Virus record (IMG/VR): IMGVR_UViG_3300045988_001142
Location: 1 to 6,275 of that record
Reading direction: 5' to 3' (one strand)
DNA length: 6,275 bases
Origin: a virus
The position numbers and the translations under genes were made by a program. Below, piece by piece: positions 2,521 through 6,275 of this stretch (the first letter of the stretch is position 1; each line of letters starts with the position of its first letter). The notes under the pieces are model-generated. The model was not told the DNA's origin. It saw nothing but the letters and a program-made list of their open reading frames with translations, and ran no database searches.

Positions 2521-2738
2521 AGTCCAATAGCATTAAGAATGTAACCAAGAGCAGCAGAAATAGCACCAATTACGATCTTCCAAATATTATTACTTTTCAT
2601 CAGGTTGAGTTTTAAATTCAACAAAATTATTTTCTTCTTTAATTGAATCCACAATAACAACAAGACCCAACGGAGAAACTCGCTCAGAATAATTTCCAAG
2701 ACCATCCAAAGAATTGACAATATAAGGCGGTATAACAT
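2517..2738 (-). CDS. Small hydrophobic membrane protein, holin-like candidate; start uncertain (73 aa from ATG 2738, or a 27-aa single-TM peptide from ATG 2600)
   Basis: The track lists 2517..2741, but 2741 is a GTG. The first ATG is 2738..2736. The long form has two hydrophobic stretches, LYRLILSILWMVLEIILSEFLRWVLLLLWIQL and IWKIVIGAISAALGYILNAIGL, joined by a Lys-rich loop. The short form is MKSNNIWKIVIGAISAALGYILNAIGL, from an ATG 11 nt inside the end of the 64-aa ORF. Its stop overlaps the peptidase start as ATGA (2520..2517), which suggests translational coupling. There is no homology evidence, and the upstream half overlaps the 64-aa ORF out of frame. Confidence 0.4.
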   Translation of the reverse strand: MLYRLILSILWMVLEIILSEFLRWVLLLLWIQLKKKIILLNLKLNLMKSNNIWKIVIGAISAALGYILNAIGL

Positions 2739-2784
2739 CACGACCAGTTTGCTTTTCTTTAAGGGAAATAATAAATTTCTGCAT
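2590..2784 (-). CDS. Hypothetical 64-aa protein; first gene after the long non-coding region
   Basis: ATG at 2784..2782, TAA at 2592..2590. Its composition is balanced and looks soluble: MQKFIISLKEKQTGRDVIPPYIVNSLDGLGNYSERVSPLGLVVIVDSIKEENNFVEFKTQPDEK. An AT-rich leader precedes it. I recognise no family. Confidence 0.5.
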   Translation of the reverse strand: MQKFIISLKEKQTGRDVIPPYIVNSLDGLGNYSERVSPLGLVVIVDSIKEENNFVEFKTQPDEK

Positions 2785-2880
2785 AATTGTAAGATTTTAA
2801 ATGTTAAAAATGTTAATAAATAATAAGTTTGGTTTCTACAGAGGCAAAGGAAAGAATTATTTTTGAATAAACAAAATATT
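2785..2880 (-). promoter_or_regulatory. Extremely AT-rich leader upstream of the 64-aa ORF / lysis / Rep gene string; probable promoter region
   Basis: 17 G+C in the 90 nt at 2791-2880 (19%, hand count). Contains the tandem 9-mer AAATGTTAA twice (2799-2816). On the minus strand there is a TTTG (inside CCTTTGCC) and only a near-match (TATTTTG) to the Bacteroides -7 element TAnnTTTG, with no exact consensus. This is a positional argument only. Confidence 0.3.
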
Positions 2881-2974
2881 CCGGAGGTTTTTTATTCTAC
2901 GGTTAGAGTGTGAGTTGTGCGTTTATGGACAAGAAAAAGGCGAAATTGAGATGATAACTCAATTTTCCTCCGGA

Positions 2975-3175
2975 CACAACTAGGGGCTTCGCTTGAATAA
3001 CATAGGGGTATAGGCACGGCAGGTCAGATAGAACCTGCCTTTGCGCGCCTTCGCGCTAAAATACCGAAGCGGAACGCTTCTCTAAAGAAGTCGCTCCGCT
3101 CCGTTTTTCGACCAGGCCCTACGCGGGCGGCGGGTGTATATCGCTCAAACGCCGCGATAGGCTCTTAGTCCTGAA
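2975..3175. other. GC-rich multi-hairpin non-coding island (candidate ssDNA origin / structured RNA / host-interaction site)
   Basis: 93 G+C in the 160 nt at 3011-3170 (58%, hand count). Stems verified by eye: 3018-3024 ggcaggt with 3033-3039 acctgcc; 3043-3047 gcgcg with 3052-3056 cgcgc; 3066-3071 gaagcg with 3075-3080 cgcttc; 3139-3144 tatcgc with 3154-3159 gcgata; and an alternative 3127-3132 gcggcg with 3150-3155 cgccgc. Just upstream, 2880-2887 tccggagg pairs with 2967-2974 cctccgga and encloses the hairpin 2943-2950 aaattgag / 2958-2965 ctcaattt. No ORF longer than 27 codons starts with ATG here on either strand. Confidence 0.6.
3057..3108. terminator. Bidirectional intrinsic-terminator-like hairpin downstream of the VP1/150-aa/VP2 gene string
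   Basis: An imperfect long hairpin pairs 3068-3080 (agcggaacgcttc) with 3087-3100 (gaagtcgctccgct) around the loop tctaaa. It is followed on the plus strand by ccgTTTTTcg (3104-3108). It is preceded by ctAAAAta (3058-3061), which reads as a TATTTT tract after the hairpin on the minus, coding strand. It lies 140-180 nt downstream of the VP2 stop. Confidence 0.4.
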
Positions 3176-3240
3176 GAATGTTATCGTGGAAGAATAGGTC
3201 ATAAACCGGAACCATTATAAATAGTAGTATTACGAGGACC

Positions 3241-4383
3241 TTAATCATAACGAAAGACCTGAGCGCCGGGGCGCATAGATCCAATTACATTACCAACACC
3301 AGAAGCTATAGAACCAAGTCCATGCGCGACAGATTCCCAATAATAGGTACGACCTTGTTTCCGAGTTAAATCAGCGCCATATTCATACATTTTTTGCCTA
3401 GCCTTATCAGTATTATACTGAATATGCTTACGTAATTTAACATTAGCGGAATCATAAGACGCGTCACGATATTGTAATTGGTAAGCAGCGTTCGCAGCCT
3501 TAATCAAAGAATCGGAAGTTCTTTCAGCAATTCGATCAGAAATCTTTTGACCAGAAGCCTGGGCAGCCGTTAATATAGCACGTTGGATTTCAGTCTGAAT
3601 CTGTTTCTCCGTAAGAGCACCATTCAATTGAAGATTAACCAAAGTCTGACTTTTTATAAATAAGTCAGCTTGTTGTTGCTGGTCAATATAACGGTTTAAC
3701 ATACGTTGAGCGTCAGAATTCAAAAGAATCTGAGTTTCTTGAGCAGCAGACAATCGTTCAGCAAACTGAAGATTCTTCAATTCTTGAGCCTCTTTAGATT
3801 GATCCAAAGCAGCGGATATACGACCAGTTTCTTTATTCCAATAGCCAGACTCACCAATAGCCAAATTCTTCCAATTTGTCAGACCTTTATAATAATTAGC
3901 AATTTGAGGAGTAATAGCATCAATATTATTAGATTCTGATTGTGCTTTTTTCGCTTGGGCAAGAGAAGCCAAAGAATTAAAGATATCGGAAAAATTAGGC
4001 GTAAAAGCCTGCATAGAAGGAACAGGAGCAGCAGAAGCGGCAGCACCACCAGAAGCGGGAGATCTAGAGCCAGCCATAGCTGCAGAACCTTGAACGAACG
4101 GATTCAAACCACGGGAAATCATAGCATTGGGGGAATTATAAGAATTATTCATTCTCCACATCTTTTCTTGCCAATCACGCTGAATCTGAGCCTGTTCGGC
4201 GTTAAAAGCATTATTATCGCGATTAATATCAATATTGGTCTGGTTGGCCTTATTCTGCGAAGAAGCGCCAATAGCATTGCCAATTAAAGAAGAACCAGCA
4301 GCGATAAGGCCTCCAAGGACAAGAGGCGCAATACACTTATCGTTAGGGGAGAGAATACTCTCCCCTATTTCTAGAAACTTCAT
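3241..4383 (-). CDS. Minor capsid / DNA pilot protein VP2 (phiX174 H-like), 380 aa
   Basis: A Gly/Ala-rich hydrophobic N-terminus (APLVLGGLIAAGSSLIGNAIGASS). The conserved block AEQAQIQRDWQEKMWRMNNSYNSPNAMISRGLNPF, typical of microvirus VP2. An Ala/Gly/Ser linker. A long Gln-rich helical region (QELKNLQFAERLSAAQETQILL...QIQTEIQRAILTAAQA) resembling the H-protein coiled-coil tube. The position after VP1 is canonical. ATG at 4383 overlaps the upstream stop as ATGA. Confidence 0.87.
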   Translation of the reverse strand: MKFLEIGESILSPNDKCIAPLVLGGLIAAGSSLIGNAIGASSQNKANQTNIDINRDNNAFNAEQAQIQRDWQEKMWRMNNSYNSPNAMISRGLNPFVQGSAAMAGSRSPASGGAAASAAPVPSMQAFTPNFSDIFNSLASLAQAKKAQSESNNIDAITPQIANYYKGLTNWKNLAIGESGYWNKETGRISAALDQSKEAQELKNLQFAERLSAAQETQILLNSDAQRMLNRYIDQQQQADLFIKSQTLVNLQLNGALTEKQIQTEIQRAILTAAQASGQKISDRIAERTSDSLIKAANAAYQLQYRDASYDSANVKLRKHIQYNTDKARQKMYEYGADLTRKQGRTYYWESVAHGLGSIASGVGNVIGSMRPGAQVFRYD

Positions 4384-4843: not shown

Positions 4844-6275
4844 TTAATAAGGTAAACCATTTCGATCCAAGTTCTGAACGGCATAAACTTGGAAATTAAC
4901 ATTACAAATCAACTGATCAAAAGCAAGAGAATACGAAGACACAGTAACTTGAGGTAAGAATATAGAATTCATTTGGAACGGGAACACTTTCATAGATTTA
5001 TAGTTCCAAAGACCAGTACGAGTCAAAAGGTTTTCACCTCCTAAAGGCGCAGCCCATGCTTGATAAGCTAATTGAGGACGAAGGGCTCCGTTAACACGAT
5101 CGATATCGGATTTCCATTGCCAATAGCGAAGATTATAACCAAGATTACCAGTACCGTCACCAGACATGTTCTTAGAATTAACCAGAGCTAATTGAGGAAC
5201 AGGTTGCATGCCTAATTGATCGAACGCAGGCTGAGGGAAATCAGATATAGAAGTCACCATTAACTGAGGATGTTGACCAGTAGAAGCCCAATCCAACATA
5301 GGAACAGCATGATAAACACACATAATTACACAGTGCTCAGCACCACAATCATAAGTAATTTCATGGCCACTATTAGAGCTAACACCTTTACCAGCAATAC
5401 TAGCTTGAGAAGCATCAGTATCAAGGTTAGTATTAACTACTTCATTGATATTAATAACAGAAGACCAACCACCAATATAGTGAGCGTGATTACCCATATA
5501 CTCAGGGGCTTTAATACCAAATTGAGCAGCCATTTGATCTGAGTAATCTTTGCTAGAGAATTGAACTACTTCTTTCCAGCGCTGGAGGTATTCTGTTGCA
5601 CGAATTGAAAGGGCGGAAAGGTCAGAATTAACATAAGCAATCCGATTAGAAGTATCAGTATTAGTAGAAGCCAACGAAGTCCCATTAGCTGCATTAGAAA
5701 CACGACCGATAGAACCAGAATCACCCGAAAATTTACGAGAAAGAACTACAACATTAGAAGGATCAAGATTAGTTAAAGAAGGTAGAACAGCAACCGAACC
5801 ATACTGAGATGCAGGAAGAACTCCCATAAACATATCCTTGGGGTAATTACAGTAACGTAATTGCATCCAAGTAGCGGACATGGTTTGTTTCGTAAACGCG
5901 GACTTACCGTCCCAATAATCTACATTATAAGAGAAAGCCTGATGCTTTTCCCATTGAGAATTGCTGTAAAAGTCAAAGTATATTTTCTGATAAGATAATA
6001 AAGGTAACAGGTTAACCGCAACCGATTTCTTATACAAAAGAGGATTTAGATTATCATCCAGATCAGTGATACCTGTATACGAAGATGTTACAATATCCTT
6101 GGATAAGGAATTAGGATCAAGAATAGAACCGTAATTCAGATAGTCAAGTAACTTACAAGCACCATAACGATACGGAATATTAGCGTCATCCAAAAGAGCA
6201 GCAGCGTTTGAAAGATAATCACTAATAACAGAAGTAGTAGTGTACGGAACAGAAGTTAATTGTTCTGCATTAGAA
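4844..6275 (-). CDS. Major capsid protein VP1 (F-like), C-terminal segment; unique part is 4844..6220, joined length 1,746 nt = 581 aa
   Basis: Tracked ORF 4844..6193. Its listed start is a TTG at 6193..6191 and is really an internal Leu, since the frame stays open to the window end. It contains a conserved microvirus capsid block: SIRATEYLQRWKEVVQFSSKDYSDQMAAQFGIKAPEYMGNHAHYIGG. Stop TAA at 4846..4844. Confidence 0.95.
   Translation of the reverse strand, partial: SNAEQLTSVPYTTTSVISDYLSNAAALLDDANIPYRYGACKLLDYLNYGSILDPNSLSKDIVTSSYTGITDLDDNLNPLLYKKSVAVNLLPLLSYQKIYFDFYSNSQWEKHQAFSYNVDYWDGKSAFTKQTMSATWMQLRYCNYPKDMFMGVLPASQYGSVAVLPSLTNLDPSNVVVLSRKFSGDSGSIGRVSNAANGTSLASTNTDTSNRIAYVNSDLSALSIRATEYLQRWKEVVQFSSKDYSDQMAAQFGIKAPEYMGNHAHYIGGWSSVININEVVNTNLDTDASQASIAGKGVSSNSGHEITYDCGAEHCVIMCVYHAVPMLDWASTGQHPQLMVTSISDFPQPAFDQLGMQPVPQLALVNSKNMSGDGTGNLGYNLRYWQWKSDIDRVNGALRPQLAYQAWAAPLGGENLLTRTGLWNYKSMKVFPFQMNSIFLPQVTVSSYSLAFDQLICNVNFQVYAVQNLDRNGLPY
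6221..6275. repeat. Terminal direct repeat, right copy; assembly overlap of a circular genome
   Basis: Exact 55-nt copy of 1-55. Unit genome length is therefore 6,220 nt. Confidence 0.95.

Follow-up and report, generated by a model that had tools for sequence, protein, structure and literature searches.

The window, a 6,275-nt stretch of DNA, is a complete circular microvirus genome with every gene on the − strand, and its most conserved part is a folded non-coding element of ~270 nt (about 3176–2906, − strand) inside a 456-nt gap. We hold with about even confidence that priming of the complementary strand takes place at this element, as a replication-origin region of single-stranded DNA (ssDNA); its 3′ module, module D, may contain a Rep site. 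The initial annotation had proposed a complementary-strand origin on the virion strand, and this idea is now the best-supported explanation because the element combines a strand-specific conserved fold with enriched mini-hairpin motifs, because its core module is flanked by a terminator on one side and a promoter on the other, and because it is universal in its clade. Several particulars of that proposal were wrong. The outer 8-bp helix (2880–2887/2967–2974) exists in this genome, but it is not conserved: 41.9% of cells were paired in 74 relatives, a level equal to that of shuffled and slid controls. The supposed ATAGG iterons occurred 13 times in the window versus 12.85 expected, and of the four in the region a single copy fell in a conserved block, so that they are not iterons.

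The gap (2785–3240) runs from the stop of the DNA pilot protein (VP2) gene at 3241 to the ATG of ORF64 at 2784, which agrees with the non-coding region first described. As also stated there, the ORF list held no ATG ORF longer than 27 codons in the gap; the only ORFs above that length were a 41-aa GTG ORF and a 39-aa TTG ORF. The reported shift from 19% to 58% GC was measured as 18.9% (2791–2880) and 58.1% (3011–3170) in a genome of 39.4% GC, CpG stood at 12.5 versus 3.95 per 100 nt by composition count, and the perfect stems seen by eye reappeared as several perfect 7–8 bp inverted repeats. The claim that no other junction exceeds 25 nt was nearly right, the exception being a 69-nt stretch (2521–2589) that forms a second gap unless a small membrane-type ORF overlapping it proves to be a real gene.

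Upstream of the gap, the VP2 gene (3241..4383, − strand) is a 380-aa ORF whose relatives are all annotated as DNA pilot protein; it closes the capsid-scaffold-pilot block. Between its stop and the element lies an unconserved spacer (3177..3240, − strand; mean column identity 0.25, 0% invariant columns). This spacer is absent or replaced in relatives, some of which carry a 50–52 aa accessory ORF there, and in some genomes the element directly adjoins the VP2 stop. Downstream, a conserved 64-aa ORF (ORF64; 2590..2784, − strand) opens the ORF64/M15 peptidase/Rep block. The Rep (395–2209, − strand) has HFH and YVASY motifs and matched Pfam REP_ORF2-G2P. CRISPR spacers assigned the host to Phocaeicola.

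Carriers of the element comprised ~130 viral contigs, 34 GenBank microviruses and 54 metagenome contigs. Column identity in the element core was 0.914 with 61% of columns invariant, compared to 17–44% invariant columns in genes, and relatives were 85–89% identical over the element versus ~78% genome-wide. The element was universal in the clade of at least 62% capsid identity. Module D was present in every clade member, including those without modules A–C, which were present or absent among close relatives; L142 lacked A–C despite an 88% identical capsid. A covariance model, R1, placed module D at the syntenic site of four outgroups with 34–39% capsid identity, although, L251 apart, these matches were of marginal significance (E = 0.05 to 1.1). 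In a distant blastn search of 50,697 phage records, the region matched clade members only. No copy was found among 72,556 plasmids, and a pattern search of 185,579 species-representative bacterial genomes yielded no true copy, as all 54 matches failed the element profile; matches in long viral or metagenome contigs all failed it as well. Among CRISPR spacers, two target module C and the most widely matching one targets module D.

Folding of both strands as RNA and as DNA, a check suggested in the initial annotation, separated them clearly. The coding strand folded better than its shuffles (z about −3.3, as RNA or as DNA), compared to z = −1.4 only for the + strand. In Microviridae, the coding-sense strand is the virion strand. 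We modelled ten helices on this strand, nine of which carried compensatory changes, with 97% of cells in model helices paired. Covariation of the stems among relatives, likewise suggested as a check, was evident in this region that is more conserved than the genes: double-changed pairs numbered 21 versus 9.3 in shuffles (0/500), the covariation score was 0.174 versus at most 0.058 in slid controls, and G·U outnumbered A·C in helices on the − strand (542 versus 235). Seven short helices contained 173 double-change cells versus 6 wobble-type cells, and so few wobble cells are expected if G·T acts as a mismatch. Helices P4, P6 and P1a tolerated G·U as RNA helices do (191 one-sided versus 27 double changes); P1a crosses P8, and is lost where the VP2 stop adjoins the element. 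A long-range closing helix proposed by RNAalifold, GGAC(TAAGAG)/(CTCTT)GTCC, is weak or unsupported: its inner half had an A·C mismatch in 107 of 129 copies, and the GGAC arm was missing where the VP2 stop adjoins the element, with GTCC still invariant. A GGTAT/ATACC junction helix was invariant and hence uninformative.

The element is modular, with module A (P2, P3/P3x), module B (P4), module C (P5, P6) and module D (a three-way junction, P8–P10), all given here in − strand sense. Module A (3109..3176) showed compensatory changes in the P2 hairpin (3154–3158/3140–3144) and in two overlapping GC hairpins, P3x (3130–3132/3122–3124) and P3 (3125–3128/3116–3119), which in the model would form either a pseudoknot or alternative folds. 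It includes the invariant block GATATACACCCGCC (3129–3142), and no 60-nt windows elsewhere in the genome are as conserved as those within it (identity 0.964). This module was missing in L130, L135, L142, L147 and L152. Module B (3055..3103) consists of the long hairpin P4 (3092–3103/3065–3076 and 3086–3090/3077–3081; DNA-fold z = −4.3) followed by GGTATTTTAGC (3055–3065). The 5′ arm of P4 contains a GCGGAGC mini-hairpin motif (3093–3099), and a divergent sub-clade has a second GCGNAGC in place of the 3′ arm. Module C (3008..3056; z = −3.95) holds hairpins P5 (3053–3056/3045–3048) and P6 (3042–3044/3014–3016 and 3033–3039/3018–3024), and the conserved CGTGCCTATAC (3008–3018). In 19 of 74 sequences P5 had G-C in place of A-U, and intermediates were absent; P6 covaried with G·U intermediates.

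Module D (2906..2997), the core 3′ module, displayed Watson-Crick covariation with a single C·A exception. It contains a GCGAAGC mini-hairpin (2986–2992), followed by the enclosing helix P8 (2974–2981/2913–2920), the mini-hairpin P9, CCGGAGG (2967–2973), and the hairpin P10 (2958–2965/2943–2950) with the conserved loop TTATCAT. A 22-nt pyrimidine-rich single-stranded linker (2921–2942) ends in CTTGTCCATAAAC, and CTCACAC (2908–2914) comes after it. The linker and the P10 loop were invariant in sequence, and the stems around them varied.

SCGNAGS motifs averaged 2.79 per copy on the folding strand, 23 times the chance value of 0.12, versus 0.08 on the opposite strand; the probability of three or more was 0.0002. 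Each copy has three such sites, which are strand-specific. At these sites any base is tolerated at N, the closing C-G is retained and the outer pair covaries among GC, CG and AT, with P9 occurring as GCGAAAGC, CCGAAAGG or GCGAACGC. The variation at all three sites obeys DNA mini-hairpin rules. The same variants have been reported as DNA mini-hairpins, with a Tm of 76.5 °C for d(GCGAAGC) versus 39 °C for r(GCGAAAGC), and such mini-hairpins occur at the G4, St-1 and α3 complementary-strand origins, RSF1010 ssiA and the N4 hairpin promoters (PMC13037366). The corresponding gaps of the outgroups contained 16 mini-hairpins on the coding strand versus 3 on the other.

The capsid-scaffold-pilot operon probably ends at P4 as its intrinsic terminator. 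A terminator-like scan match (3080–3066, tail GGTATTTTAG) joins a GC-rich hairpin to a U-rich tract at the operon end. Variants carry a canonical hairpin and U-run in the same slot: P4 is followed by U6 in L130, and canonical hairpin and U-run terminators lie directly upstream of module D in L135, L152 and L142. At the other end, we predict a Bacteroidota σABfr-type promoter for the ORF64-lysis-Rep block (2845..2875, − strand), made up of a −33 box TTTG (2872–2875), a 19-nt spacer and a −7 box TTCCTTTG (2845–2852). The published consensus is −33 TTTG and −7 TAnnTTTG, about 19–21 nt apart (PMC7366714). Most relatives have TAnnTTTG as the −7 box, from which TTCCTTTG of the window departs by one mismatch. 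The promoter was found in 126 of 140 unique copies, 85 of them with the strict consensus, compared to 0.65% in shuffles. It is followed by the AT-rich 5′ leader of ORF64 (2785..2844, − strand), with an invariant TTATTAA and moderate conservation (0.68). The AT-rich third of the gap is no more than this Bacteroidota promoter and 5′ leader. Module D lies between the terminator and the promoter and is therefore probably little transcribed.

We propose that the gap is a cis-acting control region of the genome, and that its ~270-nt core acts mainly as folded ssDNA of the virion (coding-sense) strand. Beyond what was observed directly, namely the conservation, strand-specific structure, motif enrichment, modularity, terminator and promoter context, and host, we infer that ssDNA is the active form, that it primes replication, and which enzymes would be involved. 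Upon entering the Phocaeicola cell, the circular ssDNA would be coated by SSB, and the GC-rich hairpins together with the very stable GNA/GNNA mini-hairpins (GCGGAGC, GCGAAGC, CCGGAGG) would stay folded and exclude SSB. At this SSB-free landmark, host primase/primosome or RNA polymerase could begin complementary-strand synthesis. Priming from such landmarks takes place at the G4, St-1 and α3 origins, at the phiX174 primosome site and at single-strand origins of rolling-circle plasmids. Module D, with its three-way junction, two mini-hairpins, conserved loop and linker CTTGTCCATAAAC, would be the ancient universal core, possibly also recognised by the phage Rep as a viral-strand origin. Modules A–C would form an exchangeable cassette, in which P4 may also act at the RNA level to terminate the capsid-scaffold-pilot transcript, and the promoter and leader of the ORF64-lysis-Rep genes would make up the AT-rich end.

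The alternative that survives best, a tentative possibility in our estimate, is that the element is a structured RNA, either a highly folded 3′ UTR on the capsid-scaffold-pilot mRNA or a ~270-nt non-coding RNA produced by processing. Its role might be transcript protection, or the binding or sponging of a factor from host or phage, with the mini-hairpin resemblance being incidental. Virion strand and mRNA have the same sense, so ssDNA and RNA look alike here. The element has the sense of all genes and directly follows the pilot gene, in some genomes with no room for a separate promoter, and the pilot-gene mRNA must include modules A and B at its 3′ end. P3 and P3x both covary and would together make a compact pseudoknot, a typical RNA feature; the multi-helix architecture with its long-range and crossing helices (P3/P3x; P1a across P8), the long invariant unpaired blocks, the frequent G·U pairs in P4, P6 and P1a, and the RNA-fold z of −3.3 point the same way. 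Two further points count against the ssDNA-origin reading: the near-complete invariance over ~270 nt exceeds that known for the phiX174 or G4 priming signals, and A–C, which are dispensable in some close relatives, cannot be the sole priming signal.

Several observations argue against RNA as the active form. The universal core, module D, comes after canonical terminators and before the next promoter. With just two Watson-Crick pairs, P9 and the site-2 hairpin nevertheless covary, and two-pair mini-hairpins are viable as DNA (Tm 65–76 °C) but not as RNA (39 °C). Wobble intermediates are nearly absent from seven helices (6 cells versus 173), and P1a disappears where the VP2 stop adjoins the element. 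The Rfam scan recommended at the outset gave no match in the region at E up to 10 with Rfam 15, for the whole window or the element alone; snoRNA, miRNA and leader matches at permissive thresholds were chance, outside the region or below threshold. ARAGORN detected no tRNA or tmRNA, and resemblances to group I intron, RNase P, tmRNA and 6S RNA were dropped with no model match. We consider it somewhat unlikely that the element is a new class of large structured microvirus RNA, or a dual-use ssDNA origin and RNA. If true, the large RNA would combine a pseudoknotted 5′ domain (P2, P3/P3x) with a three-way-junction 3′ domain and would target a factor of the host or the phage, as the first large non-coding RNA of the Microviridae.

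Module D could instead be primarily the viral-strand (+) origin, which we regard as distinctly unlikely. The phage HUH Rep would bind the P8/P9/P10 junction and nick the pyrimidine-rich linker (…TCTCTTG/TCCATAAAC) in the manner of phiX174/pC194 CTTG/ATA, with modules A–C supplying the terminator and the complementary-strand signal. Module D is the sole part common to all clade members and to the outgroups with homologous Rep, it lies just upstream of the operon encoding a Rep with HUH and YxxxY motifs and a REP_ORF2-G2P match, and the invariance of linker and P10 loop among variable stems fits this assignment. Strict Watson-Crick covariation would be expected if the hairpin also extrudes from the double-stranded replicative form. 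A motif of the form (pyrimidine run)-CTTG-(T/C)CC-(A/T)TA recurs in four of four outgroups, and we take it to resemble the pyrimidine-rich CTTGATA nick region of pC194 and phiX174. However, exact CTTGATA is absent from the element, there are no iterons, Rep length showed no association with module content, and, with the phiX174 origin situated within gene A, the origin here may also be in coding sequence. CTTGATA itself was rejected as a marker of viral-strand origins, being too frequent in these AT-rich genomes, where its sites outside the element are at chance level.

It is very unlikely that the gap holds expression signals only, namely the P4 terminator, the promoter and spacer DNA, with the other hairpins serving as mRNA-stability or termination back-ups as in phiX174 intergenic regions. 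P4 with its U-tract is terminator-like, canonical terminators replace A–C in some relatives, and the promoter is conserved; but ~80 nt would suffice for a terminator and a promoter, compared to 270 nt in which the share of invariant columns (61%) is above that of every gene, module D persists beside independent strong terminators, and the invariant loops and linker and the mini-hairpin enrichment would be left unexplained. Next to no probability remains for a conserved small protein gene, or for DNA captured from a host, for example an attachment site for integration: some GenBank relatives annotate hypothetical proteins here (e.g. a 108-aa CDS in PP511392) and L001–L005 have ~110-aa ORFs, but the longest internal ORF varies from 5 to 83 aa between copies, reaching at least 80 aa on the folding strand in 1 of 129, and these readings are effectively refuted by the 288 of 301 deletions relative to the window that break frame and by the lack of a copy in the bacterial genomes, long metagenome contigs and plasmids searched.

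Microviruses are among the most abundant human-gut phages. To our knowledge, their replication origins have been defined only for the phiX174/G4 group. The ssDNA-origin reading provides a bounded candidate for the replication-control region of a widespread Phocaeicola-infecting lineage, with a helix-by-helix model, the linker as candidate Rep site and the mini-hairpins as candidate priming landmarks. If true, DNA mini-hairpins would be tied to ssDNA origins in Bacteroidota as well as in E. coli phages, there would be a reason why these genomes are most conserved in a non-coding part that is a favoured CRISPR target, and Bacteroides genetic tools and the rebooting of synthetic microviruses would gain a portable single-strand origin.

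The element resembles known origins in organisation, with no sequence similarity to the G4, St-1, α3 or phiX174 origins among the 50,697 phage records (blastn) or to plasmid single-strand origins (sso) among the 72,556 plasmids; the conserved RS-B/CS-6 motifs of known sso types were not matched either. The rolling-circle ssoA, ssoU, ssoT and ssoW and the f1/M13 minus-strand origin are orientation-specific structured non-coding cassettes of 150–300 nt. Such sso cassettes are exchangeable between related replicons, and modules A–C behave like a cassette of this kind. The CS-6 motif of ssoA is TAGCGT in a terminal loop; it is not reproduced here, TAGC(G/A)C being confined to the base of the P5 helix. 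General sso features include recognition by host RNA polymerase and a position near the Rep-dependent origin (PMC5714925). With the phiX174/pC194 double-strand origin (CTTG/ATA), the element's genome shares the HUH and YxxxY Rep arrangement, and the element shares a pyrimidine run ending in CTTG followed by A/T-rich sequence, here modelled as single-stranded and upstream of the Rep operon. It differs in having CTTGTCCATAAAC rather than CTTGATA, and in its non-coding position compared to an origin inside gene A.

The phiX174 primosome assembly site (n′/PriA hairpin, F-G intergenic region) is likewise a virion-strand hairpin at which host proteins start the complementary strand, and it coexists with an intergenic terminator and stability hairpins (PMC9865509; PMC5714925). 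That site is a single ~55-nt hairpin, compared to the multi-modular domain described here. A further parallel in organisation is with the G4, St-1 and α3 complementary-strand origins, which also lie in a microvirus non-coding intergenic region, consist of conserved strand-specific hairpins on the virion strand, and are presumed to exclude SSB (PMC13037366). They carry a GCGNNAGC/GCGNAGC mini-hairpin in an arm of a longer hairpin, so that the two folds compete (PMC13037366); its counterpart in the element is GCGGAGC in the P4 5′ arm. The element has about double their length and comprises ten helices, a three-way junction and three mini-hairpins, its host belongs to the Bacteroidota, and its priming role is putative. 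Roodoodoo- and reekeekeeviruses also have conserved non-coding hairpins with compensatory substitutions, identified through DNA folding, which have been proposed, without proof, to start negative-strand synthesis (PMC9865509). Theirs are one or two simple hairpins of 13–64 nt in unrelated small microviruses, whereas the element is a ~270-nt multi-domain structure that is more conserved than the genes.

The 6,275-nt window comprises one complete, circular genome of a microvirus, with positions 1–55 repeated at 6221–6275. All genes lie on the – strand: the major capsid gene (369 through the junction to 4844), a scaffold-like ORF (4832–4380), the pilot protein gene (4383–3241), a 64-aa ORF (ORF64, 2784–2590), an M15 peptidase gene (2520–2212) and the gene for a 604-aa HUH Rep (2209–395). 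Microviridae package the gene-sense strand, which makes the – strand here both virion-sense and mRNA-sense. The 456-nt non-coding gap between the pilot protein gene and ORF64 (2785–3240) is real, and a stronger feature than the sequence alone had let the initial annotation see. As annotated, it held no ATG ORF longer than 27 codons, GC content jumped from 18.9% (2791–2880) to 58.1% (3011–3170), CpG density was high (12.5 per 100 nt compared to 3.95 genome-wide), and short perfect inverted repeats were present. Two finer proposals did not hold up. The 'outer' 8-bp helix was peculiar to the genome studied here; in relatives 41.9% of its cells were paired, the control level. ATAGG, suggested as an iteron, occurred at chance frequency (13 copies, 12.85 expected).

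The region was matched at 74–89% identity in 34 GenBank microviruses sampled from lemurs, dogs and humans, the best matches reaching 85–89% compared to roughly 78% over the remaining genome. Searching with invariant blocks recovered over 110 IMG/VR contigs, of which about 130 contained the full element (about 3176–2906) by profile search, and a metagenome scan yielded a further 54 full and 14 partial copies, each on a contig of at most about 6 kb. When 46 circular genomes were aligned over their whole length, the core (3176–2905) had a mean column identity of 0.914 with 61% invariant columns, compared to 17–44% in genes, and the top 60-nt windows of the genome (0.964) lay at 3172–3083. Sampling via the capsid protein showed the element to be universal in the clade with capsid identity of at least 62%; the next relatives outside are at most 39% identical. 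Five contigs of 7.1–7.4 kb (L028, L125, L210, L232, L293) carried two copies spaced by about one genome length; the contigs are circular genomes assembled to more than unit length, and real duplication was rejected. We found no published description of the element in the literature.

Of the two strands, only the – strand folded better than dinucleotide shuffles (z = –3.3 for the RNA fold, –3.4 for the DNA fold; + strand, z = –1.4). Ten – strand helices emerged from 129 unique copies when unbiased mutual information was combined with explicit counting. In a 74-sequence alignment, 97.0% of cells were paired in the model compared to 92.7% in shuffles, 21 pairs were changed on both sides compared to 9.3 (0 of 500 shuffles attained 21), and the covariation score was 0.174 compared to at most 0.058 in slid registers. 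G.U pairs outnumbered A.C pairs (542 vs 235), which together with the folding z-scores indicates that the – strand is the folding strand. The helices were grouped as four modules. Module A (3109–3176) combines P2 with P3x and P3, which overlap and are each backed by independent compensatory changes; module B (3055–3103) is a long hairpin, P4, with GGTATTTTAGC after it; module C (3008–3056) contains P5 and P6. In module D (2906–2997), P8 encloses P9, a hairpin of 2 bp; P10, a hairpin whose loop TTATC is invariant; and an unpaired, pyrimidine-rich 22-nt linker that ends in CTTGTCCATAAAC. The invariant GGTATTTTAGC block (3055–3065, – strand) has one mismatch to the –7 promoter box TAnnTTTG; its single-stranded position just 3' of a duplex resembles a fork junction, and we speculate that a sigma factor could bind it on ssDNA.

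Five relatives retained module D alone, or B and D. In three of these (L135, L152, L142), the exact slot of modules A–C was taken by a textbook terminator of hairpin plus U-run, in another (L130) U6 followed P4 itself, and P4 of the window scored as terminator-like. L142 (IMGVR_UViG_3300020030_000089), without modules A–C and with a different terminator, is the closest capsid relative of the window (88% identity), and the modules have therefore been exchanged by recombination. The nearest relatives by non-coding region have capsids just 62–72% identical to that of the window, and these conflicting relationships indicate that recombination broke at the element or close to it. Of 140 unique copies, 126 carried TTTG-N19-T(A)nnTTTG, the Bacteroidota sigma-ABfr promoter consensus, 30–50 nt downstream of module D, so the AT-rich third of the gap is promoter and leader. 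Module D is positioned between terminator and promoter, a location expected to see little transcription.

Covariation alone is unable to separate DNA from RNA, as the virion strand and the transcripts have the same sense. Three observations (mini-hairpins, wobble avoidance and position) favour ssDNA for most of the element. The heptamer S-C-G-N-A-G-S averaged 2.79 occurrences per copy of the element on the folding strand compared to 0.08 on the opposite strand, with 0.12 expected by chance. At each of three fixed sites, the loop N varied, the C-G closing pair was constant and the outer pair covaried. P9 appeared as GCGAAGC, CCGAAGG, ACGAAGT, GCGAAAGC, CCGAAAGG and GCGAACGC, and a divergent sub-clade carried a second GCG(A/T/C)AGC in place of the P4 3' arm. 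These sequences are the 'mini-hairpin DNA' of Hirao and colleagues, which melts at 65–76 °C as DNA compared to only 39 °C for r(GCGAAAGC), and is documented in the G4, St-1 and alpha3 complementary-strand origins, RSF1010 ssiA and the N4 hairpin promoters (PMC13037366). In seven short helices (P2, P3, P3x, P5, P8, P9, P10), 173 cells were changed on both sides compared to 6 of wobble type, as expected if G.T counts as a mismatch. The pattern was reversed in P4, P6 and P1a (27 vs 191), a wobble tolerance that fits an RNA-level terminator role of P4.

The module D covariance model matched the syntenic gap of four outgroup genomes (34–39% capsid identity): L251 with a bit score of 50.4 (E = 1e-8), and L254 (17.8, E = 0.05), L253 (15.7, E = 0.14) and L252 (11.4, E = 1.1), these three individually marginal yet co-located. 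Helix sequences were wholly different, but the junction architecture was kept, together with GNA-loop hairpins (ACGAAGT, CCCGAAGGG, CCGTAGG) and the linker, as pyrimidines-CTTG(T/C)C-(T/A)TA. The mini-hairpin strand bias also appeared in outgroup gaps (16 vs 3). Module D may, in addition or instead, be a viral-strand origin recognised by Rep: the linker is invariant, unpaired and just upstream of the Rep operon, and Rep has HFH and YVASY motifs. Rep length did not track module content, and CTTGATA itself gave no information on viral-strand origin location. Two outgroup gaps share AGCACCTTGATATCG (L252 3585–3610; L254 3655–3680), directly followed by an extended mini-hairpin (GATCGGAGATC and CGGCGAAGCCG, respectively). 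The CTTGATA core matches the phiX174/pC194 nick-site consensus, so this site could be the viral-strand origin of both outgroups.

We consider it rather unlikely that the element is a structured RNA. Speaking against the DNA reading, transcription of modules A and B is certain, P3/P3x resembles a pseudoknot, and near-invariance over 270 nt goes beyond that of known priming signals; set against this are the three observations favouring ssDNA. The element is not a gene, nor is it any known RNA: its longest internal ORF ranged from 5 to 83 aa among copies, the reading frame was broken by 288 of the 301 deletions that copies show against the window, Rfam 15 left the region without a match, also when the element alone was queried with E as high as 10, and ARAGORN found no tRNA or tmRNA. 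GenBank 'hypothetical protein' CDSs across the element or module D in relatives (L001 793–1119, PP511392 XCD03858.1; L251 3581–3784, PP511526 XCD05189.1; L006 505–801) have non-conserved reading frames and are probably annotation artefacts. Acquired host DNA, also raised initially, found no backing, with no true copy in 185,579 bacterial genomes (pattern search), long contigs or plasmids.

Some relatives have a 50–52 aa ORF (MKYELRIKVGRKVVFS… / MYYEVRIKKGRKVVFS…) between the pilot gene and the element (L003 1065–1217; L004 1069–1221; L147, reverse complement, 2999–3157), which, given its homology between distant members, is probably a real small accessory gene. The ORF64 region (2517–2784, – strand) was nearly as conserved as the element (identity 0.91; 0.93 in the 2692–2633 window). 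A conserved hydrophobic ORF of 73–74 aa overlaps it in another frame, just upstream of the M15 peptidase gene, and its C-terminal part (MKSNNIWKIVIGAISAALGYILNAIGL) resembles a membrane helix. This candidate may be a lysis or holin-like gene that arose by overprinting and, if real, would fill the 69-nt 'gap' at 2521–2589.

One metagenome 'match' (L322, contig OFFZ01002528.1) was a type I-C CRISPR locus (reverse-complement coordinates 3028–6665; cas genes 2–2862) with Cas7/Csd2, Cas4, Cas1c and Cas2 by NCBIfam classification, Cas1c and Cas4 exactly matching proteins of Phocaeicola vulgatus. Of the 55 spacers in the locus, about 37 matched the microvirus clade, reflecting intense, repeated spacer acquisition against it. 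Three were aimed at the non-coding element, and the spacer against module D matched 196 loci, the most of any. Judged by these matches, the P. vulgatus locus assigns the host and gives independent support for a member of the Bacteroidota, in agreement with the sigma-ABfr promoter type.

We regard an ssDNA-origin mechanism for the element as evenly balanced. On the incoming virion strand, a folded SSB-resistant domain would mark the complementary-strand priming site for host enzymes, P4 would also serve as terminator of the late transcript, and module D may additionally or alternatively be the Rep-recognised viral-strand origin. The proposed priming logic is shared with plasmid sso elements and with the single-strand initiation signals of G4 and phiX174 (PMC5714925; PMC9865509). 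Among the known origin and terminator regions of phiX174/G4-type phages, the element is best filed as an unusually large, modular variant.
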